In this document: piece by piece, positions 44,185-58,783 of the stretch | How positions within the stretch are numbered: the first letter of the stretch is position 1 | Layout: each line of letters begins with the position of its first letter | Source: Candidatus Latescibacterota bacterium | GTDB taxonomy: Bacteria > Latescibacterota > UBA2968 > GCA-2709665 | Length of the DNA stretch: 64,000 bases | NCBI GenBank assembly: GCA_965203805.1 | Contig: OZ241917.1 | Span: forward strand, 5,504,001-5,568,000 | Direction: 5' to 3' | Notes under the pieces: model-generated | What the model was told of the DNA's origin: nothing | Databases searched by the model: none | What the model saw: only the letters and a program-made list of their open reading frames with translations | Translations under genes and position numbers: made by a program

Positions 44185-45486
44185 TTGGCGGTGCATGAAA
44201 TCTTCACCTCAAGGGAGCCGGAACGCGCAATTCTGGTGGGCATGGCGCTTCCGGGCAATTCATCCTGGGATACAGACGACACGCTGAATGAACTTGCGTT
44301 ACTCGCGGACACTGCAGGTGCGCAGGTTGTGGGCCGGATGGTGCAGGAGCGGGAAAGCATCGATCCGGCTTTTTTTATCGGCCGGGGCAAGGCTGAGGAA
44401 CTTGCGGTCCGCGTGAAACAACTCCGGGCGCAAGTGGTAATCTTCGACGACGACCTGTCGCCTGCCCAATTCAAGAACATCGAGGAAGTGGCGGGCGCCA
44501 ACGTCATCGATCGGAGCCGGCTGATCCTGGACATCTTCGCGGGACGGGCCAAGACGCGCGAGGCCCAGACCCAGGTGGAACTGGCACAACTCAACTACCT
44601 GTTGCCGCGGCTGACGCGCCGATGGACGCATCTGTCGCGCCAGGCCGGCCACGGCGGGACGACCGGTGGAATCGGCACCCGGGGTCCGGGAGAAACGCAA
44701 CTGGAGGTGGACCGCCGGGCGCTGCGGAGCCGTATCGGGGTCTTGACCAGAGCGCTGAACCGGATCGCCAGGCGGCGTGTACTGGGGCGTAAGCAGCGAA
44801 CGGATACGTACCGTATCTCCCTGGTGGGCTATACGAATGCCGGAAAATCGACGTTGATGCGCGCACTTTCCGGCGCCGACGTGTTCGTGGAAGACCGCTT
44901 GTTCGCAACGCTGGACTCCACGACCCGCAGAGTCTATCTGGGGTACAATCGGGAAGTCCTGCTGACCGACACGGTCGGGTTTATCCGAAAGCTGCCGCAT
45001 CACCTTGTCGCTTCGTTCAGAAGCACACTCGAGGAGGCGGTTGATGCGGACCTGTTATTGCACGTTGTCGACGTGAGCCATCCAATGTGCGAAGAGCAGA
45101 TCGGGGCGGTGCATGAAACGCTCCACGGACTGGGCATCGCGGAGTACCCCACGTTGATGGCATTCAACAAGATCGATCAGTTTCACGATCCGTCTATGCA
45201 GGGGCGGCTTCGGGCCGGGTATCCGGACGGCATCTGGATCTCGGCACAGGAAAACCGCGGGCTGGACGATCTGCGGTGGGCGATTTACGACCGGCTCGAG
45301 GGCGAACGCAAGGTGATGCAACTGCGTGTTCCCCAGGCGGAAGGAAAGCTCCTCTCGGAACTGTATCGGGTGGGGGAGATATTGAATACGACCTATAAGG
45401 GAAACGATGTGTTTCTGGAGATCAAGCTGAGCCGCCAGAATGCGAGGCGGCTCCTTCCCGACGGAAGGTTTCGGATCAAACGATGA
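44185..45486 (+). CDS. hflX: GTPase HflX
   Basis: GPGETQLEVDRR, GYTNAGKST, LFATLD, DTVGFI, NKID. Confidence 0.96.
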   Translation: MAVHEIFTSREPERAILVGMALPGNSSWDTDDTLNELALLADTAGAQVVGRMVQERESIDPAFFIGRGKAEELAVRVKQLRAQVVIFDDDLSPAQFKNIEEVAGANVIDRSRLILDIFAGRAKTREAQTQVELAQLNYLLPRLTRRWTHLSRQAGHGGTTGGIGTRGPGETQLEVDRRALRSRIGVLTRALNRIARRRVLGRKQRTDTYRISLVGYTNAGKSTLMRALSGADVFVEDRLFATLDSTTRRVYLGYNREVLLTDTVGFIRKLPHHLVASFRSTLEEAVDADLLLHVVDVSHPMCEEQIGAVHETLHGLGIAEYPTLMAFNKIDQFHDPSMQGRLRAGYPDGIWISAQENRGLDDLRWAIYDRLEGERKVMQLRVPQAEGKLLSELYRVGEILNTTYKGNDVFLEIKLSRQNARRLLPDGRFRIKR

Positions 45487-45519
45487 ATTGAAGCTCGATC
45501 TTTGCGGGATGATAAAACG

Positions 45520-45561
45520 AAACAGGCGTTTGCGGTTTCCATCCGCAAACGCCTGTTTTTT
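45520..45561. terminator. Bidirectional intrinsic terminator
   Basis: 16-bp stem AAACAGGCGTTTGCGG-(7 nt)-CCGCAAACGCCTGTTT plus T run, between convergent genes. Confidence 0.85.
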
Positions 45562-45595
45562 CTGAATAGCCGGTATCTTCGGACACGCCAGCAGG

Positions 45596-46018
45596 TCAGG
45601 TCGGGGATTCATCTTCTGTATCGGCAGGCGGAGACTCCTGGCCATCAACCTCCGCGGGCGATGCAACTTCGTCTCCAGCAGCGCACTTCCCCCTGATAAT
45701 GGCGCCTTCTTCCACGACGATGGAACGCGCCGCGATGTCTCCGTTGAAGACGGCGCTGGCTTCCAGCTTGACGCTCCCGTCGGCTTCCAGTTTTCCGGTA
45801 ACTTCCCCGCCTATCACCGCGTCACGCACCCGGACGACCTCTGCATCCACTCTTCCGGACGGACCGATGACAAGCGTGCCCGATGCATGCAGTTCGCCCT
45901 TGAGCGTGCCATCCAGTCGGATGCTCTCGTCCGACGTTACCGATCCTTCCATCACCGTGTCTTTGCCGATCACCGTTTTGATGGCTTCTTTTTCCAGCTT
46001 TTGTTTGAACGCTAACAT
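45596..46018 (-). CDS. Bactofilin (polymer-forming cytoskeletal protein)
   Basis: TVIGKDTVMEG...IRLDGTLKG...VIGPSGRV...GDI...IVVEEGA beta-helix. Confidence 0.92.
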   Translation of the reverse strand: MLAFKQKLEKEAIKTVIGKDTVMEGSVTSDESIRLDGTLKGELHASGTLVIGPSGRVDAEVVRVRDAVIGGEVTGKLEADGSVKLEASAVFNGDIAARSIVVEEGAIIRGKCAAGDEVASPAEVDGQESPPADTEDESPT

Positions 46019-46156
46019 TCGGATGTCCGCTCACGAGTCTTTTGCTATGTAAGATTGTCCGATGGGTATTTCCACGCGTTGGGGAATCTCATATTTCTGC
46101 GGACCGGCCGGAGACATCGCGGAGAGGTCGGGAACCGGGTACCGGTCATCCTGCAT

Positions 46157-46618
46157 TCATCTGGAATTCACGGAATCGCGGGGCGACCCGGCAGCGCCCT
46201 CGACCGTACTGGCGGCGGGCGCGCCTTTCTCTCCGTTCTCCTCCTGGCGTCCGGAAGAAATCGCATTCGTGAAGGAAGCCTGCGTCGGCCCCGCGTCGGG
46301 CAACAGCATCTGACGCAGTTTCTGATCGGTTCCCTGGATTCGCTTCAGGGTCAGCGCAAGTTCTTCCACACGAGCCACTTCCGCTTTCAGCCGGCTGTTC
46401 TCCGCCCTCAGGGTGTGCGCCGACTGTCGCCACTCCTGAATCTTCCATATGAAGGCGAATTCCAGGATCAGCATGATGAGCAGCAGGAGAATCGCGCCGG
46501 CGACCGCCCTGAACGGCCAGTAACCGAGCTTGAACACAATGGTGCGCGAAGCGTCGTCGGGTATGAACAGTACCGACATCTTTCTGCGCCGTTGTCTGGC
46601 CACGCAATCGGTCTCCAC
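46157..46618 (-). CDS. Single-TM coiled-coil protein resembling the N-terminus of bactofilin-associated M23 peptidases
   Basis: KMSVLFIPDD motif, TM segment and coiled coil; no LytM HxxxD/HxH motifs. Confidence 0.65.
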   Translation of the reverse strand: METDCVARQRRRKMSVLFIPDDASRTIVFKLGYWPFRAVAGAILLLLIMLILEFAFIWKIQEWRQSAHTLRAENSRLKAEVARVEELALTLKRIQGTDQKLRQMLLPDAGPTQASFTNAISSGRQEENGEKGAPAASTVEGAAGSPRDSVNSR

Positions 46619-46812
46619 TTCGGGTTCCGCCTGGTGCCGATGGCGCCGGAGGCGATTACCGCCTTCGCATCGGCGCCGATGCCTGAGATCACGTCTGCGT
46701 TCAGGTTAGCAGGCGGCGGCGGTTTTGTCAAGCGGTTTAGGGCGGGGCCGCCGCCCGATGGCGGTGCACGATGCTCGGGGACCGGCGGGTGTCCCGGTCC
46801 GCATGGTCGCAG

Positions 46813-46974
46813 CTACACGCGTTTCTGCAGCAGCCAGCCGGCCGTGAAAATCAGACCGCCGATGATCGCAAAGCGCACCTCCCGGCCGATGTCCTCTTCG
46901 TAGAGGCCGACAAACAGGCCGAAACCCATATAGATCAGCCCGGCAAGTTGAAGGATGCGAGCAAGCAGACGCAT
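46813..46974 (-). CDS. Small 2-TM membrane protein
   Basis: 53 aa with two hydrophobic segments. Confidence 0.6.
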   Translation of the reverse strand: MRLLARILQLAGLIYMGFGLFVGLYEEDIGREVRFAIIGGLIFTAGWLLQKRV

Positions 46975-47191
46975 TCGAAACCCTGTCCCCGCCTTGTCCC
47001 GTCCCGTCCGCATTTCATCGCGGCAGATCGGAGGAGGATGTGGCTTCTACGCCAGGAACATTAAGAAATTGCGGGCAATCGGTCAACCGTCCTCGTCTGC
47101 ATCGTTCCGGAAACCGGCGTAGCGTGGGCGGCGAAAACGAAAGCCGACATCAAAAGACATCGGCATTTATTCGGAGTGATAGCTTACGGCG

Positions 47192-47389
47192 GTGTTAGCG
47201 CCCCAAACACGCAACACTAAAACTGCAATCAATTGCACCGTAGACCAAGAAAGCCAAATTGATCAAAATCATCAATTCTCGCTTTTTTTGGGGCGAACAC
47301 GATAGGTGTCCAAAGACGCTTGTATAGTCGATTTTTAATACCTGATGTCTAAGTAACCAACGGTTCTTCGGCAAAATGGGCTAACACGA
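47192..47389. repeat. Three copies of a GTGTT(A/C)GC(G)CC motif in an AT-rich island flank
   Basis: GTGTTAGCGCCCCAAA (47192, +), TTTGGGGCGAACACGA (47287, -), ATGGGCTAACACGA (47376, -). Confidence 0.55.
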
Positions 47390-47434
47390 AACCTTCATGG
47401 ACCCCTATTCGAAGGCGACTCAGGATCGTATCAG

Positions 47435-50400
47435 TCAGGCCCAAAGCCAATCCAACTCCGAAAAAGCAAGTTTCCGATCGAAGTTCTCGATGTTGTCCCG
47501 AACGTTGAGAATCAGACAGCGGTCGCCGCCACCGTTCAGTGGTCCCCTCAATCCGCGACCGATCATCTGGAAGTATAGGTTCGGGCTGTATACGGGCCGA
47601 GCGACGATTATGGCCCGTGTCTTGGGAGCGTCGAAGCCCTCGCGGAATACCCCATAGTTGACGAGTGCCTTAATCTCTCCACGGCGGAAGTTTTCGACCA
47701 CACGTCGTCGAGTCGCCGTTTCCGTCTCTCCGCTAACTGCACGCGACCGTATTCCCTTCCGGTTGAGGAGTGCTGCCAGCGTCTGCGCATGCTCGACCGA
47801 TGTCGCGAAGATTAGTGTAGACCATTCCGGATCAATACGTGACACATAAGCTTCGATGATGCGTTTGGTTCGCTCGACGCTATGAGCGATGCGCTCTTCC
47901 ACGCTCTGGGGAAGCCAGGGCAGTGCCATCCACTCGTTAAGTGTCCGTGTCAATTCTTCCTTGTCTACCGAGCCATTCAGGATCTCGTCGAGCGGAAACG
48001 TCTCGCCCTCAATGGTCTCATGATCGGCTTGGGCAAGTACGCCCATTTCTTGCAATTCACAGATGACGGCTTCCGGCTCGTCGCTCGCGAACGCTCCCGA
48101 GTCCAGTCGCCTGTTTCCGTAGCGTCGAACGAGTCTCTTCGTCTCCTCTTCGTCGCGTCCGCGATAGGGCGTAGCCGTAAGGCCAAGCATCAGTGGCTCC
48201 TCCACCCGTTGAAAGCGGGTCAATCCGATATCCTCCATGACAGACGTGAAAGTCGGGGCGATTGACCGATGTGCCTCATCGAAAACCACTAGCTTGAAGT
48301 TGGCCAAGAACTCGTACTCATCGGGCTGGTGTGTGAGCCTCGCCTTAAGAGTCTGGATGGTCGCAACGACGACGTGAAGTTCGCTCGTGGGTTGCGGCCT
48401 CTCCAGCCCACCCCACAATCTGGAGATACGTAGCCGAGTCGCCTGTGTGCCGACACTTGACCACACCTGCCGCCATCCTTCCACGGCTTGCTCGCACAGT
48501 TCGTCCCGGTCAGCAACCCAAAGGACGCCGCCAGGGAAGCCGTCATCCCGCATGGCTTCAATGATCGCCTGCACAGCGACCCGGGTTTTTCCGGACCCGG
48601 TCGGCATGCTAATGATCCCTCTCCGATCGGACCCACCCTCCTGTTCGCCAAGCAGCATGTTCCGGACATTGTCGACGACAGTCTGCTGGTAGCCATGAAG
48701 GTCTGGAAGAGAGTACGGACCCTCGATCTCCAGAAAGGGGTCGCGTTTCTGGTCCCGCTCACCGGCCCAATTGGCGGAGAACCCGAGGGACCGCACGAAG
48801 TCCACAGCCCGCTGCGAGCCAGCCCAACGTACCGGCGGGTCGAGACGTTCCAACGCCCACCTGTATTGCTTGAGTGCGTCGGTGTGCCAGGTGGCTATGG
48901 CAGCCTCCGCAATGTCAGTTCCCGCTAGTGTGACGTCGCCACTCTCAAGTATCGATAGAAGAGAATCGGGAAGACTTGAGCGTAGGGCCTGTTCTCCCAC
49001 TGCGGCCAAGAGGCGTTTAGCGTCGGAAGAATGCTGCCGTATCGCGAAGCGTCTCTCCTTGACTTCCTGCGGTGTCCTTCGGTGCAGTATTGCGTCGGTC
49101 TCATTTACGTCAATCCCAAGCTCCAACTCTTCCACGACGAGTTGTAATTTTCGTAGCTCGTCACCAACCGAGTCCGAGATATATATATTGGAGGCATGTA
49201 GAACGCACTCGCGAGGTTGTCCTAGGACGAGTATCCGCTCGCAGCGAATGAGACTGCACGTTCGCCGATACCCAGGAAGGTATTGCCCAAGGCCTGGCCA
49301 GATATCAGTCAATGGGATAGGTTCGTCTTCTACGAAGAATTCCGGCGTCGGCTGCGCCAGATCAAACGCCTTCTTGATATCGTCAGCATTCGAATGGAAA
49401 AGCAGCACGTGCAGTGCTTTCGGACTCTTCGGGTGTGGTCCAAGCGCGTCCTCCAGCGGAACGATCCCGCCGTCGGTTCGGATTCGCCCGTGTTTCCTGA
49501 GCATCTGGACAGTTGGCGATTCGCATTGTAACGATGGACACGGGTTTTGTGTGTCGTGGCGCATCGTCCACGGGCTATAGGTCGTCTCACTTGAAAGCAG
49601 GCTATCCGTGTATCGCGCACTTCCTTCATCGGAGAGAAGACGGAGAACCTCCAACGGTCCGCGACCAATGTTGGTTTCGAAATTCAGTAGATGCGAATGT
49701 GGGTTTCTTTTTAGTTCGCGACTTGTGAAGCGTTCGCGGCACTCTTCCAAGAAACCCGGAAACCATGGTTCTGGCGAAAGGTCGCGACCATCATTGGGCG
49801 TCTCTGCCACACCAAGAGCGCGTAACAGCTCATCGTCGGCTTCATGGAATTCGATGTCCGCAGTAACGTCTTTGTCACGGCTTCCGTCGCCGGGTACGAT
49901 ATCGCCGGGCCGCAGTACGGAATGGAGCGGTCTCCAACCGCCAGCCCTTGTCCGAACCCGGAGTTTCGTAGTCCAGACGTCTACTCCCCTGTCGTTGTTC
50001 TCCCGAATGACGTCCGTAGCGGACTTCGTAGATAACTTACGGGAAGTGGTCCAGAACTCTTGGTGGAGATCGGCACTCAACTCACTATCAGCTCCGCTTC
50101 CGATGATGAGTTCTGCCAGAACCCTGAATCTGGTTTCCCACGATGGCGGCTTAAGTCCGAGTTCCTTGAGCGCCGCAAACGTGTCGTGGTCCGATGCCAG
50201 TTTGGGGTGGACGCACGACGCCGGGCTCTTGGCTCCGTCACCGTTTAGCGACTCACTAGGCAGGAAGAGGTGCTCAGGATCAGGCGACCGCCAATCCCCG
50301 CTCGCCGTTAGAACGATAGCGCCAAGTCTTGCTCCCGATCTCTTTTCAGGCGATATCGCCGCAGCGGTCTGAATCGCCGCCATGGACGCGCTTGCCGCCT

Positions 50401-51952
50401 CATCCGCTTCCTTCCCGTACATAAGTGCCTGCAACCACTCCTCTATGGACGCCCTTGGCGCACCCGAAGATGACAATCCTGGCGGGTTTCCTTCCGTGTG
50501 AAACAGTCGATCGATTCTGGGGAGCCTGATGCGGGTGAGCGCTTTGTGATGAAGCCAATCGCGTGGCCGGTCCGCGTATGCTGCCCACCGTTCGAACGGT
50601 CGTGTATCTATCTGGGGCTCTGAGGTAAGTTCCAACGGAGGATAGAAGATGTTCCCGTGTACATGCAGTTTTCCGTCCTGATCTGGAACGATTTCACGTT
50701 CGTGGAGATCGGAGAACAGGATTCTGCGGAGAAGATTAACCTGGTCGGAATCGGCCCAACCTCGTTCGCGTGGCAAAGCATCCAAGTGTCGCGCAGGATC
50801 GTCGGATGTTGCCAGCCCTGGGAGTGCCTCGGCGATCATTGTCGCGGCGGCTTTGATCAATTCGTCATTGTATGGCCCCGGCAATAGATTTTGACGATCC
50901 TCATTGGTCTTCCATGGCGCATTCAGGATACCGGCAAGGAGGCTTGCGGTCTTGGTCGGAAAGAAAGCCCAGAAGTGTCCGGGGCGATCGAGGCGATCTA
51001 GCGGTACTGCCCACGAGATCGGCACGTTGCCGCTGTCTTTATCTAAGCCCCAGTCGCTTAGTGCTTCGGAAGAAAGGGTATGGGTTGTCTTGAAAAGCCG
51101 CCAATGCGAAGTCTCGTCGCCGGTATCGAGATGGAACTCCTCCTTCCGATGCTGCAACATGAAACTTCGGGAGACTTCTCCACATTCAAGGGTCAGATAA
51201 CGGACATGATCGACGAAAAGCAGAAATTCGGGCGGAAAGTCCCTGATTTGTTTTTCGAGGTCATCTCGCGCACCGGGCTTAAGGGGCAGGCGTACGATGT
51301 TCGTCGCCCAACCCATCAGTTCCTGCATTTCCTCGTCGGCATTCCTCTCAATGTAGGGATCGATAGGTTCCGGCAACCGCAGAACCGGGTATTGATCGGC
51401 TTGCGCGATGTCCGCTATTCTTTTCGCCGAGCGTGTTTTGTCAAACATGAACGAACCAGACCGGCTGTAGAACTCGGGAGCATCCGTTACTCTCAAGACC
51501 GATTTGAAACCTTTCCCGAACCTTCCGATCGCCGAGGTGTTCCGTTTGCTCGACATGCGGTCGAACATGAGCCCCACGATCCCGTCTTCGTCGATGGATT
51601 TTCCATCGTCAGCACAGTATAGGAAGTGTTTCGTCACGCGGATCAGAATGCTTTTCCCTTTTGGAGCGTCAAGTAAAGCGTCCGCGCTGTTTTGGACGAG
51701 TTCGAAGAGCTGCCGTCGAGCATATCCTCCGTGGGCGGTATCATATTCCTGGTTGAAATGCTCGGTTACGTGTCGTGGCTGCACACGGTATGAATCGAGG
51801 GTCTTCTGCGTCTCTTTGACAATGAACTCGGCAAGCGGACCGTCGGGGCCAACCCAAACCGCTTTCTTGTCGAGAGTGGGAAAGCTCACGTTAGCGTTTC
51901 TCTGGGCGAACCTGCCGCGTACACTCTTGGAAAAGTCGTATTCGGTCTTCAT
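47435..51952 (-). CDS. 1505-aa fusion: BrnA-like antitoxin N-terminus + sacsin/GHKL ATPase + SF2 (DEAH, ResIII-like) helicase
   Basis: MKTEYDFSKSVRGRF; ELVQNSADA, ADDG, IGRFGKGFKSV; MPTGSGKT, DEAH, GLTATP, EGFDAPK, QMIGRGLRG. Confidence 0.9.
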   Translation of the reverse strand: MKTEYDFSKSVRGRFAQRNANVSFPTLDKKAVWVGPDGPLAEFIVKETQKTLDSYRVQPRHVTEHFNQEYDTAHGGYARRQLFELVQNSADALLDAPKGKSILIRVTKHFLYCADDGKSIDEDGIVGLMFDRMSSKRNTSAIGRFGKGFKSVLRVTDAPEFYSRSGSFMFDKTRSAKRIADIAQADQYPVLRLPEPIDPYIERNADEEMQELMGWATNIVRLPLKPGARDDLEKQIRDFPPEFLLFVDHVRYLTLECGEVSRSFMLQHRKEEFHLDTGDETSHWRLFKTTHTLSSEALSDWGLDKDSGNVPISWAVPLDRLDRPGHFWAFFPTKTASLLAGILNAPWKTNEDRQNLLPGPYNDELIKAAATMIAEALPGLATSDDPARHLDALPRERGWADSDQVNLLRRILFSDLHEREIVPDQDGKLHVHGNIFYPPLELTSEPQIDTRPFERWAAYADRPRDWLHHKALTRIRLPRIDRLFHTEGNPPGLSSSGAPRASIEEWLQALMYGKEADEAASASMAAIQTAAAISPEKRSGARLGAIVLTASGDWRSPDPEHLFLPSESLNGDGAKSPASCVHPKLASDHDTFAALKELGLKPPSWETRFRVLAELIIGSGADSELSADLHQEFWTTSRKLSTKSATDVIRENNDRGVDVWTTKLRVRTRAGGWRPLHSVLRPGDIVPGDGSRDKDVTADIEFHEADDELLRALGVAETPNDGRDLSPEPWFPGFLEECRERFTSRELKRNPHSHLLNFETNIGRGPLEVLRLLSDEGSARYTDSLLSSETTYSPWTMRHDTQNPCPSLQCESPTVQMLRKHGRIRTDGGIVPLEDALGPHPKSPKALHVLLFHSNADDIKKAFDLAQPTPEFFVEDEPIPLTDIWPGLGQYLPGYRRTCSLIRCERILVLGQPRECVLHASNIYISDSVGDELRKLQLVVEELELGIDVNETDAILHRRTPQEVKERRFAIRQHSSDAKRLLAAVGEQALRSSLPDSLLSILESGDVTLAGTDIAEAAIATWHTDALKQYRWALERLDPPVRWAGSQRAVDFVRSLGFSANWAGERDQKRDPFLEIEGPYSLPDLHGYQQTVVDNVRNMLLGEQEGGSDRRGIISMPTGSGKTRVAVQAIIEAMRDDGFPGGVLWVADRDELCEQAVEGWRQVWSSVGTQATRLRISRLWGGLERPQPTSELHVVVATIQTLKARLTHQPDEYEFLANFKLVVFDEAHRSIAPTFTSVMEDIGLTRFQRVEEPLMLGLTATPYRGRDEEETKRLVRRYGNRRLDSGAFASDEPEAVICELQEMGVLAQADHETIEGETFPLDEILNGSVDKEELTRTLNEWMALPWLPQSVEERIAHSVERTKRIIEAYVSRIDPEWSTLIFATSVEHAQTLAALLNRKGIRSRAVSGETETATRRRVVENFRRGEIKALVNYGVFREGFDAPKTRAIIVARPVYSPNLYFQMIGRGLRGPLNGGGDRCLILNVRDNIENFDRKLAFSELDWLWA

Positions 51953-52236
51953 TATCGAGACTCGTATTGGCGTCGCTCGTTTTGGGTGGCGACGCGAGCT
52001 GAGATTATCCTTATTGTCGGTTTTTCGTCGTCGAACTCAGCATCAGTGTGACATACCACGAGTAGGCGACCGTCACGAGCATATCCCATGGTTACCCAGC
52101 GTTCCTCGAACTGACTGTGATCGTCGTCTGGAATTGACTTTGAGAGCGGATCCAGGAGGACCGCTGCGGCAAGTTCGAAGCTCACACTATGCTTCCGTAG
52201 ATTGCTCGCTGCCTTGGCTGGATCCCAATCGAACAT
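51952..52236 (-). CDS. brnT: BrnT-family toxin (ribonuclease)
   Basis: FDWDPAKAASNLRKHSVSFE...HSQFEERWVTMG...LLVVCHT...IRIISARVATQNERRQYE. Confidence 0.93.
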   Translation of the reverse strand: MFDWDPAKAASNLRKHSVSFELAAAVLLDPLSKSIPDDDHSQFEERWVTMGYARDGRLLVVCHTDAEFDDEKPTIRIISARVATQNERRQYESR

Positions 52237-52446
52237 ACGATTCCATTCAAAGCGGCGAACGATCTGCGGATTGGCTTATGCTTGACGCGATGGGCTGTGC
52301 TACAAGGAATGGATTCGCACGCGAAAGGAAAAAAGGTATCGCAACGTCTATTCACAGTAGGGACTTGCAAAGGGCTACTACTGCGTCCCGCGTCGGGAGC
52401 CGAGGACAATGCGGTAAATTGGAACGAGTGCACCGCTAGAGCGGAA

Positions 52447-52917
52447 CTAGAATGCCCTGTTGAGGTTCAAGCGGACGCCCCTGGCTTTGAGGTCGCCGTT
52501 CACGGCCAGGCCTACGCCTTTCATTTCAACCAGGTTGTTTCGCTTTTCCGGGGGCGGGAGTTCCTCGCCTTCATCCGAAAGAAAGAGATGGACGGAGTAC
52601 GCCAGGGTTCCGACGCCGAGCCCGAACATGATGGCGGCCTTGGTATCGCCGGATTTGCTCTCGCCGTAAAGGTCTCCCGCAGTCTGGGAGGAAGTGGTCG
52701 TTCTGTACTGTTCGTACGCGTTGTTCGCGTCCTTCCTGGCTGCGTGCGCCTCGGTGAAGAACCAGATACTCGCACCCAGCGACAGAACTCCGTGGAATTT
52801 CCTGGAATACAGGAAGTCTTTCGTCTTCTTTTGCGCCTGGGCCGGGCCCGCTGAAGCGAATAACGTGGCAGCGGCGACCACGATGGCGACCGCGCAGGTC
52901 CGATAACGGATGTACAT
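52447..52917 (-). CDS. Hypothetical exported/membrane protein
   Basis: Signal peptide ending AQA, two hydrophobic segments and a C-terminal Phe beta-strand; GGGAGG RBS. Confidence 0.7.
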   Translation of the reverse strand: MYIRYRTCAVAIVVAAATLFASAGPAQAQKKTKDFLYSRKFHGVLSLGASIWFFTEAHAARKDANNAYEQYRTTTSSQTAGDLYGESKSGDTKAAIMFGLGVGTLAYSVHLFLSDEGEELPPPEKRNNLVEMKGVGLAVNGDLKARGVRLNLNRAF

Positions 52918-52960
52918 TGCGTCCTCCCGGGGTCGATTGGGTCCCTGGCGGAACTTCAGA

Positions 52961-54334
52961 TTACTCGTCGGTCTGAACAGACGGCCCACCGACGTGCTGT
53001 TCCAGTTGGGCCAGTTCGATCTGGTATTGAAATCTGTCCTGCACAAGCTGGTTTCGGGCCGCAAAGAGTTGGAGTTGCGCCTGTTGGCGATCGAGAAACG
53101 TGCCGCCTCCGAGGTTATAGCGCTGGTCCTGAAGCCTGAAGTTCTCTTCGGCGGCCTTCACCGCCGCCTCGTTGGCCGTGACGCTCCGACGAAGTCTCTC
53201 GAGGTTCAGAAAAGACAATCTGATATCCATGGCCTTCTGACGTTTTGCCTGGTCGAGTTGCTCCCGGCTCCTCAGGTACTCCAGTTTCTGGATCTTGATG
53301 CTGTTCACGGTATTCAAGCTGTTGAATAAAGGGAGCCTGATACTGATGCTCGTGCTATACGAATAGTTCTTGATGAAGAGGTCTTCCACGCCCGCAAAAC
53401 TCTCACCCCGGTTCAACCGCCAGCCGTACCCCGCGCTGCCCGTAATGGACGGGAAGCGCACGCCGTACTTTGTGGCTCTCAATTCATCCCTGCTGGCCAG
53501 CATTCTGTGTTTTTGCGCCAGAATTTCAGGACTCCCCCTGAGCGCCCTCTCCAGCGACGTCTCGTAAGTTATGGGGGGCGGTTTGACTGAAAACGTCTTT
53601 TCGGTTGGAAAAATGTCCACGTCGGGACGGAGTCCGAGCGAAAATGCAAGCTCCGCGCGAGCCGTGGCAACGTCGTTTTCCCTGGCGATGAGCGCGACGC
53701 GATCGCCCGCCAGCTGAGACTCCGTGCTCAGGACCTCGGCGATCGTGGTCGAGCCGATCTCATACATCGTCTTTTCGCGTCGCAGGTCTTCTTCCGAAAA
53801 ACTGACCTGCTCTTTCGCCAATTCCAGTTGTTCGAGACGCTGGAGCAGGGTAAAATACCGCTGCTTTACGAGAAATGTCGTCTGCTGCCGGGTCTCCGAG
53901 AAGTCCATCTCCGCCGCACGCGCGTTCTTTTTGCTGGCAGACAGATTCGCAAGATTGGCGGCGTTGAAAATCGTAATGCTCAGGCTGGATCCGACGTTCT
54001 GGGATCCGCCCACCTGGTCTTCACCCACGGTGGTGACGATCGTCTGCGTGGCGGCGTCGAAGATTGCCCCTTCCCTTGGGCCGGTCACGCTCCTGGACAT
54101 GCCGTAGTTGCCGCTCAGGCTGGGCAGAAACGCATTTCGCCTCTGGTCGATCTGGGCAGCGGAAATCTCACGCGCGAATCGGGATTGAGTAATCGCCGTG
54201 TTGTTGCCCAGGGCGATTTCGATGCATTCGGAGAGGCTGAGGTGCATGTCTCGCGGCGCTTTTTCCTCAGCGGCCAGCGGCCATGAAAGAGCCGTAGCAG
54301 CGGTGAAAAGCGCAGTTCTCAGCACATGTAACAT
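52961..54334 (-). CDS. TolC-family outer membrane efflux protein
   Basis: Signal peptide; LSLSECIEIAL, two OEP repeats, LPLFN. Confidence 0.9.
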   Translation of the reverse strand: MLHVLRTALFTAATALSWPLAAEEKAPRDMHLSLSECIEIALGNNTAITQSRFAREISAAQIDQRRNAFLPSLSGNYGMSRSVTGPREGAIFDAATQTIVTTVGEDQVGGSQNVGSSLSITIFNAANLANLSASKKNARAAEMDFSETRQQTTFLVKQRYFTLLQRLEQLELAKEQVSFSEEDLRREKTMYEIGSTTIAEVLSTESQLAGDRVALIARENDVATARAELAFSLGLRPDVDIFPTEKTFSVKPPPITYETSLERALRGSPEILAQKHRMLASRDELRATKYGVRFPSITGSAGYGWRLNRGESFAGVEDLFIKNYSYSTSISIRLPLFNSLNTVNSIKIQKLEYLRSREQLDQAKRQKAMDIRLSFLNLERLRRSVTANEAAVKAAEENFRLQDQRYNLGGGTFLDRQQAQLQLFAARNQLVQDRFQYQIELAQLEQHVGGPSVQTDE

Positions 54335-54781
54335 ACCTGGTACTCCTACTTTCGTCCCGTCAGTGGTTTTCTCGACGTCATGGAAAGGGGTAGCAACCGG
54401 TTCGATTCAAAGCCGCGGGATGCCGATCATGATTATTAGACAGCGCAAAACAGGAAAAGTTACCGGTCAATTGCTTTCCCGTTGTCGATGACGAATCACA
54501 AAGAAAGCAGAAACCACATGAAAAGGAAAGTGAAAACTTCCGCGTGTGCAAGCTATGATTGGTTGTTGCGGTTTCCGATATCAGCCTTAATTCGACGAAA
54601 ACAGCCACGGGTCGCTGCGACGAATCCTTCCGAAACGGGCCGAAAAGGTCGTCCGGAAGGACATTTTTTTCGTTCACGTCCAGTGCCTGAACGTTCATGG
54701 AAATCAGCAGTTAAATCGCCTTTATTCACTTGCGCCTATTCGAATTAACGTCCCCGAATAATGACGAATCAAGGATAGACT

Positions 54782-57700
54782 TCAGTCCCCCCGATCCAGC
54801 AGGGAATAGACGGTCGGTATGACGATGAGCGTGAGCGCGGTCGAACTGATCAGGCCGGCGACCACGGTGATGGCCATTGGCGTGCGGATCTCCGAGCCTT
54901 CGCCCAGACCCAGAGCCATGGGCAGCAGTCCCAGAACGGTGGTTGCCGTGGTCATCAGAATGGGGCGCAGCCGCACCGAGCCGGCCTGTACGATCGCATC
55001 GGTCCTGGACCGGCCACTGGCGCGCAGATGGTTGATATAGTCCACAAAAACGATGGCGTTGTTGACCACGATACCGGCAAGCATGATCAGACCCAGGAAG
55101 ACCACGACGCTGAATGAGATTCCGGTCACGAAAAGGATGAAGAGAACGCCGATCAGCGCCAGCGGAATCGTGAAAATGATGACAAAGGGATGGACGAAGG
55201 ACTCGAACTGGGAGGCCATGACGATGTAAACCAGAAAGACGGCCAGGCAAAGCGCGAAAATCAGGCTCTGTAGCGAGGTCTGCATCTCCCGGTTCTGACC
55301 GCCGATAACGAAGGAGACGTCCCCGGGAATATCGATTTTCTCCAGGGCCTGCTGAATCAGCCCCGTTGCCGTCCCCAGATCGATACCGCCCACGTTGGCC
55401 GATATCAGCACTGCCCGCTGCTGGTCGATGCGCCGGATCTCGCTGGGGCCCTCCCGTACCTGAATATCGGCGACGGCGGAAAGGTAGATTGGGGCGTCGC
55501 CCTCAGGGTTGACCACCAGCCGTTTCAAATCGGATACGCCGGAACGATCGGCTTCGTCCACGCGAACCAGAACATCGATGCGTCGGTCGGCCTCCCGGAA
55601 CCGGGTGACCACGTCGCCCTGCACTTTCTCCCGGACCAGCGTGGCAACGCTTCGCAGATTGAGGCCGTACGACGCCAGAAGGTCCCTGCGGTAGACGATC
55701 TGTACTTCCGGGTTTCCGCGCTGGAGGCTGGATTTCACGTCGTAGAGCCCCGGGATTCCGGAAAGGGCGCGTTCCACGTTGCGTCCCAGGCTGGCGAGGC
55801 TGGCAAGGTCGTAGCCTCGAATTTCCAGTTCTACGGGTGTCTTGAACGTAAAAAGCGCCGGACGCGAAAAATCAACCGTGACCTGCGGGAGGTCGCCCAG
55901 CCTGTCGCGCAACCGGGACATGAGGTCCGTCTCCCGTTTCGCCAGCAGCGTGTTGCCGGAGATTCCCGCCCAGACTCTATTCGGAAACGTGCGGACGTCG
56001 TGCCAGAGCCGGCCCACGTCGTTAGCGCCGTTTGCCGCGTCGCCGGATACGACGATGGTGACCGTCGAGGTATGTTCTCCCTGGTCGGACGTGGATACTG
56101 ACGTCTTGTCCACCCCAACGACGGTGGCAATGCGCGCAACGTCCCGTTCTTTCAAAACCCGCGATTCCACGTCGGCCACGGTCTTCCCCGTGCGTTCCAG
56201 GGGAGTGCCCACGGGCATGGAGAGTTCCAGGTCGAATTCGCCCTGGTGAACGGCGGGAATGAGTTCGCGACCGATATGAGGCACCAGAAAGTACCAGCAC
56301 AGAATGAACGGCAGGAGGGCCATGGAGACGATGGTGAGCCGGTTCTGCAATGCCCAGCGGATCACTGGAGGATAGGCGCGGCTGACGGCGCCGAAGCCGA
56401 GGTCAAAGGCGTGTATTGCGGGCGCGAGCAGGGGAAGGGCGACGGCGGCCAGCAGAGCCGCGACCGTGACCCCGACCGGAAAGGTGATCATCATCAGCAG
56501 GATCAGCAGTTTTCCAAGCAGCGAGACCATCTGGAAGATCAGGAATCGAAGAATGAAATATAAGGGTCCGAGTACGAAGAGCAGGACAAGCAGAAGAACA
56601 CCGGCCAGGGCCGCGGGAACACGCGGGACCATGGCGAGACGCCTGCCGCGTAACGGCCACCGGCATGTTCGGCCCGCGGAGCGCCACGTCCATCTCACGC
56701 AGTCGGCGAGCCCTTCGCCGAACGGAACCGGGGCGTTGAAAACCAGCAGATCGTGCCAGATGGCCCGGACGATTCCGGAACCGAACGGCGTCGGGTTGCC
56801 GGCCCACGCGCAGAGATTCCGCCATGCGTGTGCGGGTTTCTTCCTGATCTTCAGGACGAGGGCGGCGGCGGGGAAATACAGGACGGGCGCAAGGATCACG
56901 CAGGCCGCCTTCAGAATGACAATCACGATCGCGAATACCACCCAGAGGGTGCGCCAGACGCATTCAAAGATCAGCCACGGCAGGTAGATGAGGCCCTTGA
57001 GTACCACGGATGGGAGCTCTGTCAGAGACCGGTCGCCCGCGAGCTCTTTGAGTCGAACGAGGGATCTGAACTGCAGCAATTCCGAATTGAACACGCCGCC
57101 TGCGGGCGAGCCGGCGCGCCCGCTTCCGGGTCCCCCGATGCGGATCCGGCGGGATGCCAGCATGGGAATGAAGAACAGCGCGACCGCGAGTGACGCCAGA
57201 AGCGAAAAGACCACGGTCAGGGACATATCGCCAAATACCTGGCCGGCCACCCCTTCGACGAAGACAATCGGAAAGAAGACCGCGACCGTGGTGAGCGTGG
57301 AGGCGAAGACCGCGCCCCCGACTTCCCCGGTGCCTCTCACCGCCGCAGTGACGATGTCGTCTCCCTCCTCGCGGCACCGGAAGATGCTTTCCAGTACAAC
57401 GATGGAGTTGTCTACGAGCATGCCGACACCCAGCGCCATGCCTCCCAGCGACATGATATTCAATGAGACACCGAATAGCTTCATGGGAGCAAACGTGGCG
57501 ATGATCGAGATAGGAATCGCCAGGCTCACGATGCCCGTATGGGAAGGATTTCGCAGGAAGATATAGAGCACCAGGATGGCGAGCACGCCCCCGATGACGG
57601 CGGTCTGTTTGACTTCGTCGACCGATCGCTTGATAAACAGCGACTGGTCCGAAAGCACTTCCACCTGCATGCCTTTCGGCATCGAATAGGCAATGTAGCT

Positions 57701-58783
57701 GGTCATCTCCTTGAGCTTGACGAACTGCCGCACCTGCGCGGCCCGGTCGGTGGCGTCTGCCGGCTCGATCTCTCCGGCATTCAGCCGCTTCACGTAGGCC
57801 AGTTGTTCCGGCGTGCCGAACAGTCGATCGCGTACCCGTTGCGCGGTGGCGACGATATTGGCGTCGGCTTCCTTGTAGATGTCGATTTCCACGCTCTCTA
57901 CGCCGTTGACACGGGTAATGATCTCCCGATCCTTGTGACCGCGTACAACATGGCTGACGTCTTTGAGCCGGATGTCCGCACTGTTCTTCTGTCCGATGAC
58001 GAGGTTGCGGATTTCGTCGACGGTCCGGAATTCGTTCAGGGTGCGGACCATGTACTGCGTCTGGCCGTCCAGAAGACTGCCGCCGGCGAGGTTGACGTTC
58101 TCTTCGCGGAGTCGCCGGTTGATGTCGCCGATGCCAAGGCCCATCAGGGCGAGCTGCCGTTCGTTGATTTCGACGCGGATTTCCTCTTCCAGACCGCCGT
58201 GCACCCGGGCCGCGGCAACGCCTTTCATCGCCTCCAGCGCCTGCTTGATTTCTTCCTCGGCGATATGCCTCAGCGCATACAGGTCGGCGTCGCCGTACAG
58301 ACCGATCCGCATGATCGGGTCCTGCGTTGGATCGTAACGCAGGATGAGCGGTTTGTTAACGCCCCGGGGCAGGTTCAGCCGATCCAGGTTCTCCCGCACC
58401 GTCTGTACAGCGTCGTTCATTTCCGTGTCCCAGCCGAATTCGAGGATGACGTCCGACATTCCCGCCCGGGAGATGGAGACGATGCTGGCCAGATTGTTGA
58501 CGACCCCCAGCCGCTGTTCTATTTGCCTGGAAATCAGGTTTTCAACTTCCTCGGGCGCGGTATCGGGATAGTCCGTGCGGATGGTGAGGGTGGGATAGGA
58601 GATGTCCGGCATCAGGGTGAGCGGCAGCTGCTGGTAGGATATATAGCCGAAGACCGCGATAGCCAGGACGACCATAAAAATGGCCACCGGCCTCCGGGTG
58701 GTGACTTCGAACGTGCGGGAAATATGGGTTCCGGCGCGGGAAAGGGGATTTCGTGATCCGGCGCCTGCGGATTCGTCGTCCAT
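54782..58783 (-). CDS. RND efflux permease (AcrB/MdtB-like) with large insertions
   Basis: GMLVDNSIVVLE, ASTLTT, GIVVNNAIV, RLRPILMTT; 1333 aa. Confidence 0.93.
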   Translation of the reverse strand: MDDESAGAGSRNPLSRAGTHISRTFEVTTRRPVAIFMVVLAIAVFGYISYQQLPLTLMPDISYPTLTIRTDYPDTAPEEVENLISRQIEQRLGVVNNLASIVSISRAGMSDVILEFGWDTEMNDAVQTVRENLDRLNLPRGVNKPLILRYDPTQDPIMRIGLYGDADLYALRHIAEEEIKQALEAMKGVAAARVHGGLEEEIRVEINERQLALMGLGIGDINRRLREENVNLAGGSLLDGQTQYMVRTLNEFRTVDEIRNLVIGQKNSADIRLKDVSHVVRGHKDREIITRVNGVESVEIDIYKEADANIVATAQRVRDRLFGTPEQLAYVKRLNAGEIEPADATDRAAQVRQFVKLKEMTSYIAYSMPKGMQVEVLSDQSLFIKRSVDEVKQTAVIGGVLAILVLYIFLRNPSHTGIVSLAIPISIIATFAPMKLFGVSLNIMSLGGMALGVGMLVDNSIVVLESIFRCREEGDDIVTAAVRGTGEVGGAVFASTLTTVAVFFPIVFVEGVAGQVFGDMSLTVVFSLLASLAVALFFIPMLASRRIRIGGPGSGRAGSPAGGVFNSELLQFRSLVRLKELAGDRSLTELPSVVLKGLIYLPWLIFECVWRTLWVVFAIVIVILKAACVILAPVLYFPAAALVLKIRKKPAHAWRNLCAWAGNPTPFGSGIVRAIWHDLLVFNAPVPFGEGLADCVRWTWRSAGRTCRWPLRGRRLAMVPRVPAALAGVLLLVLLFVLGPLYFILRFLIFQMVSLLGKLLILLMMITFPVGVTVAALLAAVALPLLAPAIHAFDLGFGAVSRAYPPVIRWALQNRLTIVSMALLPFILCWYFLVPHIGRELIPAVHQGEFDLELSMPVGTPLERTGKTVADVESRVLKERDVARIATVVGVDKTSVSTSDQGEHTSTVTIVVSGDAANGANDVGRLWHDVRTFPNRVWAGISGNTLLAKRETDLMSRLRDRLGDLPQVTVDFSRPALFTFKTPVELEIRGYDLASLASLGRNVERALSGIPGLYDVKSSLQRGNPEVQIVYRRDLLASYGLNLRSVATLVREKVQGDVVTRFREADRRIDVLVRVDEADRSGVSDLKRLVVNPEGDAPIYLSAVADIQVREGPSEIRRIDQQRAVLISANVGGIDLGTATGLIQQALEKIDIPGDVSFVIGGQNREMQTSLQSLIFALCLAVFLVYIVMASQFESFVHPFVIIFTIPLALIGVLFILFVTGISFSVVVFLGLIMLAGIVVNNAIVFVDYINHLRASGRSRTDAIVQAGSVRLRPILMTTATTVLGLLPMALGLGEGSEIRTPMAITVVAGLISSTALTLIVIPTVYSLLDRGD

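Follow-up and report, generated by a model that had tools for sequence, protein, structure and literature searches.

Gene pair at the locus

The sequence analysed here, called the window throughout, is a 64,000-nt stretch of a Candidatus Latescibacterota genome (contig OZ241917.1, positions 5,504,001 to 5,568,000). The element of interest is a pair of genes on its reverse strand in which a toxin gene, brnT, is followed by a gene for a large ATPase-helicase protein that begins with a short antitoxin-like peptide. The brnT gene (51952..52236, reverse strand) encodes a 94-aa RNase toxin of the BrnT family (RelE-like fold), and the second open reading frame (ORF; 47435..51952, reverse strand) encodes 1505 aa comprising a GHKL ATPase, a core and a superfamily 2 (SF2) helicase. 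The genes overlap in the letters TAATG (51950..51954, reverse strand), where one base is common to the TAA stop codon of brnT and the ATG start codon of the large gene. An earlier note on this DNA, made from the sequence alone, had described an intact brnT overlapping the next gene in this way, and the ORF coordinates and junction sequence bear it out. Its further claim that there is no separate brnA also holds, because the overlap leaves it no space and none of the small ORFs next to the pair had a Pfam match. The two genes are adjacent, co-oriented and overlapping, and consist of a toxin and a protein partner, which is the gene arrangement of type II toxin-antitoxin systems. The 11 homologous junctions that were printed out have an ATGA overlap, unlike the TAATG of the window. 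It is proposed from these overlapping stop and start codons that brnT and the large gene are translationally coupled.

BrnT is an RNase that is neutralised by the antitoxin BrnA. The window protein matches the whole of the Pfam profile BrnT_toxin (PF04365; positions 1-77 of 77, E = 2.2e-25, 89.2 bits against a cut-off of 34.5), and its nearest solved chain is 7vd7_A, named "toxin" (E = 3.8e-14). Ten residues are invariant across 14 BrnT sequences: N12, K15, H16, E44, R46, R76, S79, A80, R81 and E87.

The large protein was divided into four parts. Residues 1-25 (51878..51952, reverse strand) are the BrnA-derived peptide, the proposed element for binding and neutralising BrnT, recognised by its conservation and by comparison with small antitoxins. 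Residues 33-440 (50633..51856, reverse strand) contain a conserved N-terminal flank, a sacsin/Tiamat-type GHKL ATPase and the region adjoining it. They are followed by a conserved core without known function (residues 441-1080; 48713..50632, reverse strand) and by the SF2 helicase with its ResIII/DEAD N-lobe and Helicase_C (residues 1081-1505 and the stop codon; 47435..48712, reverse strand). The same succession of a GHKL/sacsin ATPase, a long middle region and an SF2 helicase had been read from the letters in the earlier note, and NCBIfam, PADLOC, Pfam and the invariant motifs agree with it.

In the N-terminal part, the NCBIfam model of the sacsin ATP-binding domain (NF047352) is matched at residues 80-162 with 57.1 bits against a cut-off of 50, and the Pfam SACS match, at 27.9 bits, is under its cut-off of 32.8. 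The PADLOC models of TmtA, the Tiamat protein, cover the N-terminal part only (best E = 2.4e-53, residues 41-437). The best fold match of the modelled N-terminal region is the SR1 domain of human sacsin (5v46_A, E = 1.8e-6), and the subsequent ones are GRP94/Hsp90, SMCHD1, MORC2 and GyrB. The GHKL residues E84, N88, D115, G117, G143, G146 and G148 are invariant in 60 homologues, as are the helicase residues G1119-T1123 (Walker A), D1225-H1228 (DEAH) and Q1462, R1466 and R1469 (motif VI). Across the whole large protein the mean column identity in these homologues is 67%.

At residues 1085-1469 the Pfam families ResIII (7.6e-27), DEAD (1.9e-17) and Helicase_C (1e-14) all score above their cut-offs, and the best NCBIfam match of the helicase is a partial one to RadD (112.8 bits, cut-off 720). 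Neither Pfam, PADLOC nor NCBIfam detected a PD-(D/E)xK nuclease family in the large protein, whose C-terminus is made up of ResIII, DEAD and Helicase_C. The model of the core (residues 430-1085) has a mean pLDDT (predicted local distance difference test score) of 85.9. No Pfam family was found for residues 417-985 at E<=1, and in the PDB Foldseek found nothing that matches the core model at E<=0.001 (best E = 0.98). VIA-align returned weak matches to a helical repeat around residues 604-717 (Z up to 4.8) and to zincin-like, YbeY and Wss1 folds around residues 874-960 (Z 3.4-4.3); they were too weak for a fold to be assigned and were set aside.

Antitoxin-like start of the large protein

The N-terminal peptide is strongly conserved. 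In the 60 homologues Y5 is invariant and M1, K2, E4, D6, F7, S8, R12, G13, F15 and P25 are each conserved in at least 90%. Residues 1-21 have a pLDDT under 50 and are modelled as disordered. The conserved ATPase flank begins after residue 25, and a ribbon-helix-helix (RHH) family was not detected in the large protein.

The peptide was compared with the antitoxins encoded next to BrnT in the window's genome and 40 relatives. The sample comprised 33 loci, 29 of them from relatives and 4 being the other BrnT loci of the window's genome (G000), with BrnT ORFs in 31. Most antitoxins downstream of BrnT begin M..EYDFS..(V)R(G/N).., whatever their C-terminal type (RHH or another tail). Two of the EYDFS-type antitoxins pass the Pfam profile BrnA_antitoxin (L104, 9.1e-9; L001, 5.5e-9). 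The 66-aa antitoxin of L124 begins with the same 25-residue peptide, after which comes a short RHH-like domain, and is 47% identical to the window protein over 34 residues (pairwise E = 1e-9). When 1.84 billion cluster representatives were screened with a profile of the peptide, 1101 matched at E<=1e-3 and 106 at E<=1e-10. Among the best 150 of the 1101 matches, 143 are 135 aa or shorter, and the peptide is mostly at residue 1. In one protein, P0269 (181 aa), BrnT and an antitoxin with the window-type peptide are fused in a single chain.

The peptide is the sole element common to otherwise differing BrnT partners and is therefore read as the toxin-facing segment. Its sequence clearly points to an origin from the N-terminus of small BrnT-linked antitoxins, with the DNA-binding domain gone. 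The BrnA-type signature claimed in the earlier note thus stands by comparison with BrnT-linked antitoxins and does not stand by profile: Pfam found no family in residues 1-60 at E<=10 and, in the full protein, no match to the BrnA families PF14384 and PF12441 (CopG_antitoxin).

The predicted complex of BrnT with residues 1-60 scored an ipSAE (interaction prediction score from aligned errors) of 0.35 (0.34, 0.35 and 0.36 in the single runs), against 0.00 for the best of three controls, which lends weak support to the contact envisaged in the earlier note. Contacts coincide between runs to at least 65%, and the partner pLDDT is at least 48. In the calibration, 58 of 80 solved complexes and 2 of 110 mismatched pairs scored at or above the pass mark, and the passes at an ipSAE of 0.60 or under comprised just 7 of the 80 solved complexes and both passing mismatches; alignments made for this analysis were used in the prediction, and the calibration counts hold roughly. 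A sequence search of the PDB found no BrnA with an EYDFS-type motif, so the score does not stem from a known complex that the predictor had learned.

Four further BrnT loci were seen in the genome of the window. L001 and L003 have intact BrnT paired with small antitoxins, of RHH type in L001 and with another tail in L003. In L004 the BrnT gene contains an in-frame TGA, and in L005 a 61-aa BrnT ORF matches only the first 46 of 77 profile positions.

Co-occurrence of the peptide and brnT

Of 8000 proteins scored in the protein search, 1514 were relatives at E<=1e-3, and the 120 best of these are 59-99% identical to the window protein and about 1500 aa long. The earlier note had allowed that close helicase homologues might lack the peptide and brnT; the peptide is found at the start of 109 of these 120. 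Among the remaining 11, 5 gene calls start within the conserved body and 6 have other short N-termini.

A brnT followed by an antitoxin-GHKL-helicase fusion was found repeatedly in other genomes, on genome as well as metagenome contigs. On genome contigs, 7 of 19 loci possess the peptide, and in all 7 brnT lies directly upstream; 10 are peptide-less, none of them with an adjacent brnT (one of the 10, L020, has a complete brnT-brnA pair further upstream), and the other two have a different N-extension with brnT (L022) or a missing N-terminus (L015). The metagenome contigs hold 18 family loci, a count that excludes five C-terminal fragments and many unrelated helicases matching in the helicase domain only (24-34% identity). 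Of the 18, 7 have the peptide; brnT is present in 6 of these, and the contig of the seventh stops 71 nt upstream. In one locus (L039) the alternative extension occurs together with brnT, and 10 are peptide-less and without brnT. Both peptide and brnT are also found in two further loci of the same genus (G013 and G008). With duplicates merged, brnT lies upstream in 15/15 distinct evaluable peptide-bearing loci and in 0/18 peptide-less ones.

The arrangement persists to roughly 47-57% identity of the large protein, and the records in which it occurs are labelled Gemmatimonadota, Latescibacterota, Binatia, Spirochaetia, Terriglobia and Gammaproteobacteria. Judged by these counts, the peptide and brnT appear to have been retained together for a long time. 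In a tree of 27 full-length proteins (3 duplicates and 8 loci with truncated or frameshifted genes were left out, and L015, which lacks its N-terminus, has no label) the 8 peptide-bearing proteins form one clade with a support of 0.959, nested among peptide-less proteins.

It is scarcely credible that the pair is an artefact, in which an unrelated helicase gene was joined to a brnA 5' end by misassembly or by a one-off deletion. The window does come from a single-contig, metagenome-type assembly, and one family locus (L018) has frame problems of the indel type. However, the peptide recurs in 109 of the best 120 homologues, 15 distinct loci share the arrangement, and contigs of runs from three other studies span the junction between brnT and the large gene. 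The contigs concerned differ from the window in 2 (X4), 17 (X6) and 0 (X7) letters, with no indel in the coding part.

No conserved third gene was found across the loci; the shared clusters are shadow ORFs inside the large gene. Apart from these, there is synteny with an efflux pump of the resistance-nodulation-division (RND) type in close relatives. Among 10 flanking ORFs sampled at 6 loci there were an integrase, an IS1595 transposase and an AAA_5 ATPase, as well as a UvrD-type helicase and two DEAD/Helicase_C helicases, which is suggestive only.

Three other kinds of locus were noticed in the family. The Dehalococcoidia-labelled peptide-less proteins L011, L013, L014, L016 and L020 have a lysine/arginine-rich N-extension of about 30-50 residues. 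On a short metagenome contig (L045:72-878), the peptide and about 45 N-terminal residues are joined to the region near residue 1278, either by an internal deletion or by chimeric assembly. In L018:5806-7260 BrnT reads in frame into the large protein. This was rejected as a true single-chain fusion because the junction differs by one base in a homopolymer-like run and there is a frameshift inside the large gene; L018 is probably an indel error or a pseudogene.

Proposed working of the module

The sequences bear out a physical and evolutionary link between BrnT and the antitoxin-derived peptide that heads a GHKL-helicase protein. We infer that BrnT is toxic, that the peptide binds and neutralises it and that the module has an anti-phage role and a trigger. 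The reading preferred here, with a probability of roughly 55%, is that of a tethered-toxin module, in which BrnT would be silent on the peptide, would be freed when its carrier is activated or disabled, and would then arrest the cell by cutting RNA.

In such a module the large protein would replace the free antitoxin, the DNA-binding domain having been swapped for 1480 residues of ATPase-helicase, and the stop/start overlap would couple the synthesis of BrnT and the large protein. BrnT would dock on the disordered peptide and stay inactive. There are two conceivable routes of release. In the first, the helicase or core would sense nucleic acid and drive an ATPase cycle that frees BrnT; in the second, the large protein would act as a guard, and BrnT would be freed when a phage disables or destroys it. 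Freed BrnT would cut RNA and arrest the infected cell. The peptide directly precedes the conserved ATPase flank (W33 onward), and in Tiamat models, according to the main text of an October 2026 preprint (bioRxiv 10.64898/2026.09.30.754977), the 20-42 residues in front of the ATPase contribute to the dimer interface. Purely by analogy, ATP-driven dimerisation could conceivably be coupled mechanically to the release of BrnT.

BrnT could instead be a constitutive subunit, a permanently bound RNA-binding or RNase part of a helicase complex, with the peptide as its docking site and no release at all. Strict co-occurrence and translational coupling would be expected of such a subunit, and there are neighbouring precedents: Tiamat-like proteins adjoin helicase-RNase fusions, including one of a RelE-like domain with a helicase (same preprint, main text), and BrnT-like genes are described immediately upstream of RtcR-associated CoCoNuT systems in a passage of PMC11090510. 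This explanation is nevertheless improbable, as the same peptide is used by small free antitoxins, whose job is neutralisation, the peptide lacks the structure of a docking domain, being short and disordered, and truncated alleles without the helicase keep the pair.

A second fusion in the same family

The L022 and L039 loci have brnT upstream and an N-extension of roughly 90 residues that is unlike the window peptide. Pfam found no match in either extension. The first 48 residues of the L022-type extension are 48% identical to the N-terminal half of the BrnA of L020 (E = 8e-15), and this BrnA matches PF14384 (1.2e-13). Both kinds of extension end in a similar D(F/W)S.(G/A).RG.(F/L) motif. In the 27-protein tree L022 is placed outside the peptide-bearing clade. 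The sequences thus indicate that the fusion arose at least twice, the second time using a different BrnA N-terminal half.

L020 itself contains a canonical brnT-brnA pair (L020:4664-5222) that ends about 0.5-1.1 kb upstream of the possible starts of a peptide-less large gene, with a 171-aa helicase-like fragment between the pair and the large gene. It possibly represents the pre-fusion state of the L022/L039 type, and the fusion looks like the outcome of a deletion that joined the brnA 5' half to the large gene from an adjacent brnT-brnA pair.

A pair lying next to a large gene in this way is also what plain addiction, the main rival of the tethered-toxin reading, would start from. Here recombination would have placed a brnT-antitoxin pair at the 5' end of a neighbouring gene, whose product would now bear the neutralising peptide, and the pair would persist because the cell dies on losing the 5' end; BrnT would have no part in the work of the large protein and would not be released upon infection. 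L020 is a plausible pre-fusion state under this explanation too, and the commonness of peptide-less relatives (18 distinct loci) also speaks in its favour. That the same kind of fusion arose at least twice in the Tiamat-like family argues against it.

The peptide on other carrier proteins

The window-type peptide is not confined to the Tiamat-like family. One of the longer matches to the peptide profile is P0261 (529 aa), a protein with a PDDEXK_4 domain (PF14281). Among the 120 homologues of P0261 listed, 32 fit the peptide pattern and one more has a variant of it, and close relatives begin exactly where the peptide and linker end. The genomic context of such PD-(D/E)xK proteins was sampled in 168 genomes of the window's phylum. 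An overlapping brnT lies upstream in 4/5 peptide-bearing loci (L168:1215-3120 in G133, L169 in G141, L171 in G132 and L172 in G129) and in 0/6 peptide-less loci (L173-L178); 9 further peptide-less PD-(D/E)xK loci in close relatives have no brnT either. The peptide-bearing carriers are about 400-545 aa long, and the BrnT at these loci is 53% identical to that of the window.

P0290 and P0291 (Mrr_cat), which are found among the relatives of P0261, also start with the peptide, and their peptide-less relatives P0292 and P0294 begin exactly after it. In the 168 genomes, 7/7 loci examined for relatives of P0290/P0291 have neither peptide nor brnT. P0260 is a further protein that starts with the peptide, as does P0248, a histidine kinase (HisKA+HATPase_c) that is possibly a chimeric gene call. 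The carriers known with genomic context are therefore the Tiamat-like ATPase-helicase and the PD-(D/E)xK proteins, and the Mrr-type carriers are known by sequence only.

We would entertain, at somewhat less than even odds, the idea that brnT and the 25-residue BrnA peptide form a portable "arming" cassette, which tethers a latent RNase toxin to unrelated defence proteins such that attack on the carrier or its activation leads to abortive infection. Recombination at the 5' end of a carrier gene would be enough to attach the latent toxin. If true, antitoxins would have been pared down to peptide tags in a guard strategy that is both general and modular. The occurrence of the peptide on unrelated cargo (Tiamat-like and PD-(D/E)xK proteins; by sequence, Mrr_cat and histidine kinase) is equally in favour of addiction, but the cargoes with genomic context are defence-type proteins and not random neighbours.

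Occupied, empty and decayed alleles in the genus

Both genes of the window are carried on an accessory insertion of 5.3 kb (47165..52446), the right edge of which is exact and the left edge approximate. It lies between a 205-aa gene, immediately past the stop codon, and the terminator hairpin belonging to this gene. The terminator-like hairpin downstream of the module (47143..47164, reverse strand; a 9-bp stem, then a T-run) is homologous to the hairpin found directly after the upstream gene at empty sites, as seen in the alignment with L147. The site was surveyed in 14 loci from G000 and 13 other genomes of the genus; 13 are evaluable, and in the remaining one the contig stops at the site. 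A further genome of the genus gave no match. The site is occupied in 5/13 and empty in 8/13 genomes. The inserted genes are intact in G000, G004 and G013 and truncated in G001 and G008, where the large genes retain about 442 residues (G001, L137) and about 610 residues (G008, L136, with stops inside).

In G001 the flanking genes are 93-96% identical to those of the window, while the large protein is 76% and BrnT 70% identical, a contrast that points to either fast divergence or allelic replacement. The contigs of runs X4 and X7 break at 52446 into sequence resembling an empty site, and occupied and empty alleles seem to coexist in these samples. The metagenome runs containing the stretch are labelled sponge, coral and marine. 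The earlier note had placed the pair in a compositionally distinct island. The contrast in composition proved mild, with a G+C content of 0.53-0.58 in the module against 0.60-0.64 further out, and with 0.56-0.58 also in the neighbouring 52-55 kb; the insertion is real, as demonstrated by its presence and absence at one site in the genus.

The decayed alleles of G001 and G008 bear on addiction. Both have lost most of the large gene and kept brnT with the N-terminal part. They hint that a cell tolerates BrnT with no more than the N-terminal part, and are equally a hallmark of addiction. On the other hand, since truncations did occur, addiction fails as a stabiliser of the whole gene, and the fusion is kept down to about 47-57% identity in several phyla with the full 1500-aa body and the catalytic motifs intact. 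Overall, addiction is considered unlikely, even as the foremost competitor of the tethered-toxin reading.

Several observations weigh against that reading. The co-distribution counts are not independent, as they trace to one old Tiamat-like acquisition, one in L022/L039 and at least one in the PD-(D/E)xK proteins. The 18 peptide-less relatives evidently work without BrnT, which is therefore an add-on and not the effector of the family. What remains at the decayed sites, brnT and the N-terminal part, is what a selfish pair would leave. One peptide-bearing PD-(D/E)xK locus (L170:1150-2721, G137) has no brnT and instead has a different small ORF, with TAATG at the start codon. The neighbours of the pair in the window (52447-58783, reverse strand, and 44185-47013) encode an efflux pump and housekeeping functions and do not form a defence island. 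PADLOC-DB 2.0 contains no family matching BrnT and gives partial matches only for the large protein (TmtA in the N-terminal third; PbeA, mREase_IV and DpdF in the helicase lobes), so that the naming check yields a partial TmtA for the large protein and a full-length model for neither gene. Pfam does not recognise the peptide, and by the calibration of the tool a pass at 0.35 is in most cases false if the pairing was not likely beforehand.

The nuclease-family carriers have an effector of their own, and guard or addiction therefore fits them better than the idea that BrnT supplies an effector. By analogy, the peptide on PD-(D/E)xK nucleases leans toward the guard form of the tethered-toxin reading, with the toxin firing once the first-line protein is neutralised. 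PrrC fires in this way when its first-line protein, EcoprrI, is neutralised.

Relation to known systems

Tiamat was reportedly discovered by Millman et al. in 2022. The main text of the preprint cited above (bioRxiv 10.64898/2026.09.30.754977) describes it as an antiviral ATPase and defines a Tiamat-like type III-A, in which a UvrB-like SF2 helicase replaces the nuclease at the C-terminus, after the ATPase and core. The window protein shares with Tiamat the sacsin/Hsp90-type GHL ATPase at the N-terminus of a large protein and the long, poorly annotated core after it. It differs at the C-terminus, where it has an SF2 helicase and Tiamat a PD-(D/E)xK (DUF3883/NOV_C) nuclease. The Tiamat core is of the DUF3684 type, with TPR-like repeats, fold B and a metalloprotease-like fold that is inactive. 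For the core of the window protein no Pfam DUF3684 match was found, the TmtA alignments end by residue 516, and the helical-repeat and zincin-like matches are weak. The domain order matches that of type III-A, an assignment made by domain order and not with the authors' own HMMs (hidden Markov models). The window protein has in addition the 25-residue antitoxin-derived peptide and the coupled brnT. Neither of these is mentioned in the main text of the preprint, where BrnT and DUF497 do not occur (its supplements were not covered).

The suggestion in the earlier note of a new defence system accordingly stands in part. What is already known is the architecture of the large protein, described as Tiamat-like type III-A, and the BrnT/BrnA kind of pair; what is new is the coupling of BrnT and peptide. 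No published description was found of BrnT coupled to a Tiamat-like protein or of defence proteins tagged at the N-terminus with the remnant of an antitoxin, the supplements of the preprint, including its neighbourhood tables, lying outside this search.

The pair resembles BrnT/BrnA systems in its BrnT family toxin, the toxin-first order, the overlapping partner and the BrnA-type N-terminal motif of that partner. It differs in that there is no free antitoxin and the partner is a 1505-aa ATPase-helicase with no BrnA profile match. This partner has no ribbon-helix-helix domain, and there is therefore no obvious autoregulation, unlike in BrnT/BrnA.

Toxic nucleases held by a large defence protein and unleashed upon infection or by a phage inhibitor are known from PrrC-EcoprrI, PARIS (AriA-AriB) and Hachiman (HamA-HamB). 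The window module would follow the same latent-effector logic, but it has no sequence relationship to these systems and its hold would be a grafted antitoxin peptide.

BrnT modules are also rearranged by gene fusion, as single-chain BrnT-BrnA proteins are described in the available text of Gerdes (mBio 2025, PMC11980606), and P0269 is of the same single-chain kind. Those fusions join the toxin to a whole RHH or HTH (helix-turn-helix) antitoxin, whereas the window keeps the peptide only, on a large protein; the word "helicase" does not occur in that text. In CoCoNuT systems (eLife 2024, PMC11090510) a co-directional BrnT-like RNase gene likewise lies immediately upstream of a large multi-domain defence gene, but the downstream system is of the McrBC type and no antitoxin peptide is mentioned in the passage concerned.

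If the tethered-toxin reading is true, an antitoxin has discarded its regulatory domain and its toxin-binding peptide has been grafted onto a sensor or first-line defence protein, which would illustrate how toxin-antitoxin pairs and defence systems merge. It would also suggest an effector for Tiamat-like proteins that lost the nuclease, and conditional toxin release could then be studied with a peptide-toxin pair that is minimal and transferable. Natural controls are at hand in the peptide-less relatives, the two independent fusions, the truncated alleles and the second carrier family.

Surroundings of the pair

No sigma-70-like promoter was found between 52237 and 52446, and it may be guessed that the module is co-transcribed with the upstream gene. 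In the low-G+C 3' flank there is a 59-aa ORF (47195-47374, reverse strand) without a Pfam match, which is about 51-52% identical over 42-47 aa to sequence in two loci of the genus and is probably non-coding. The protein of the neighbouring 205-aa gene has no Pfam match. By eye, the other neighbours look like a 457-aa TolC-like outer-membrane factor and a 1333-aa RND-type pump, together with apparent small membrane proteins, a bactofilin and HflX. The neighbouring genes of the window are syntenic within the genus.

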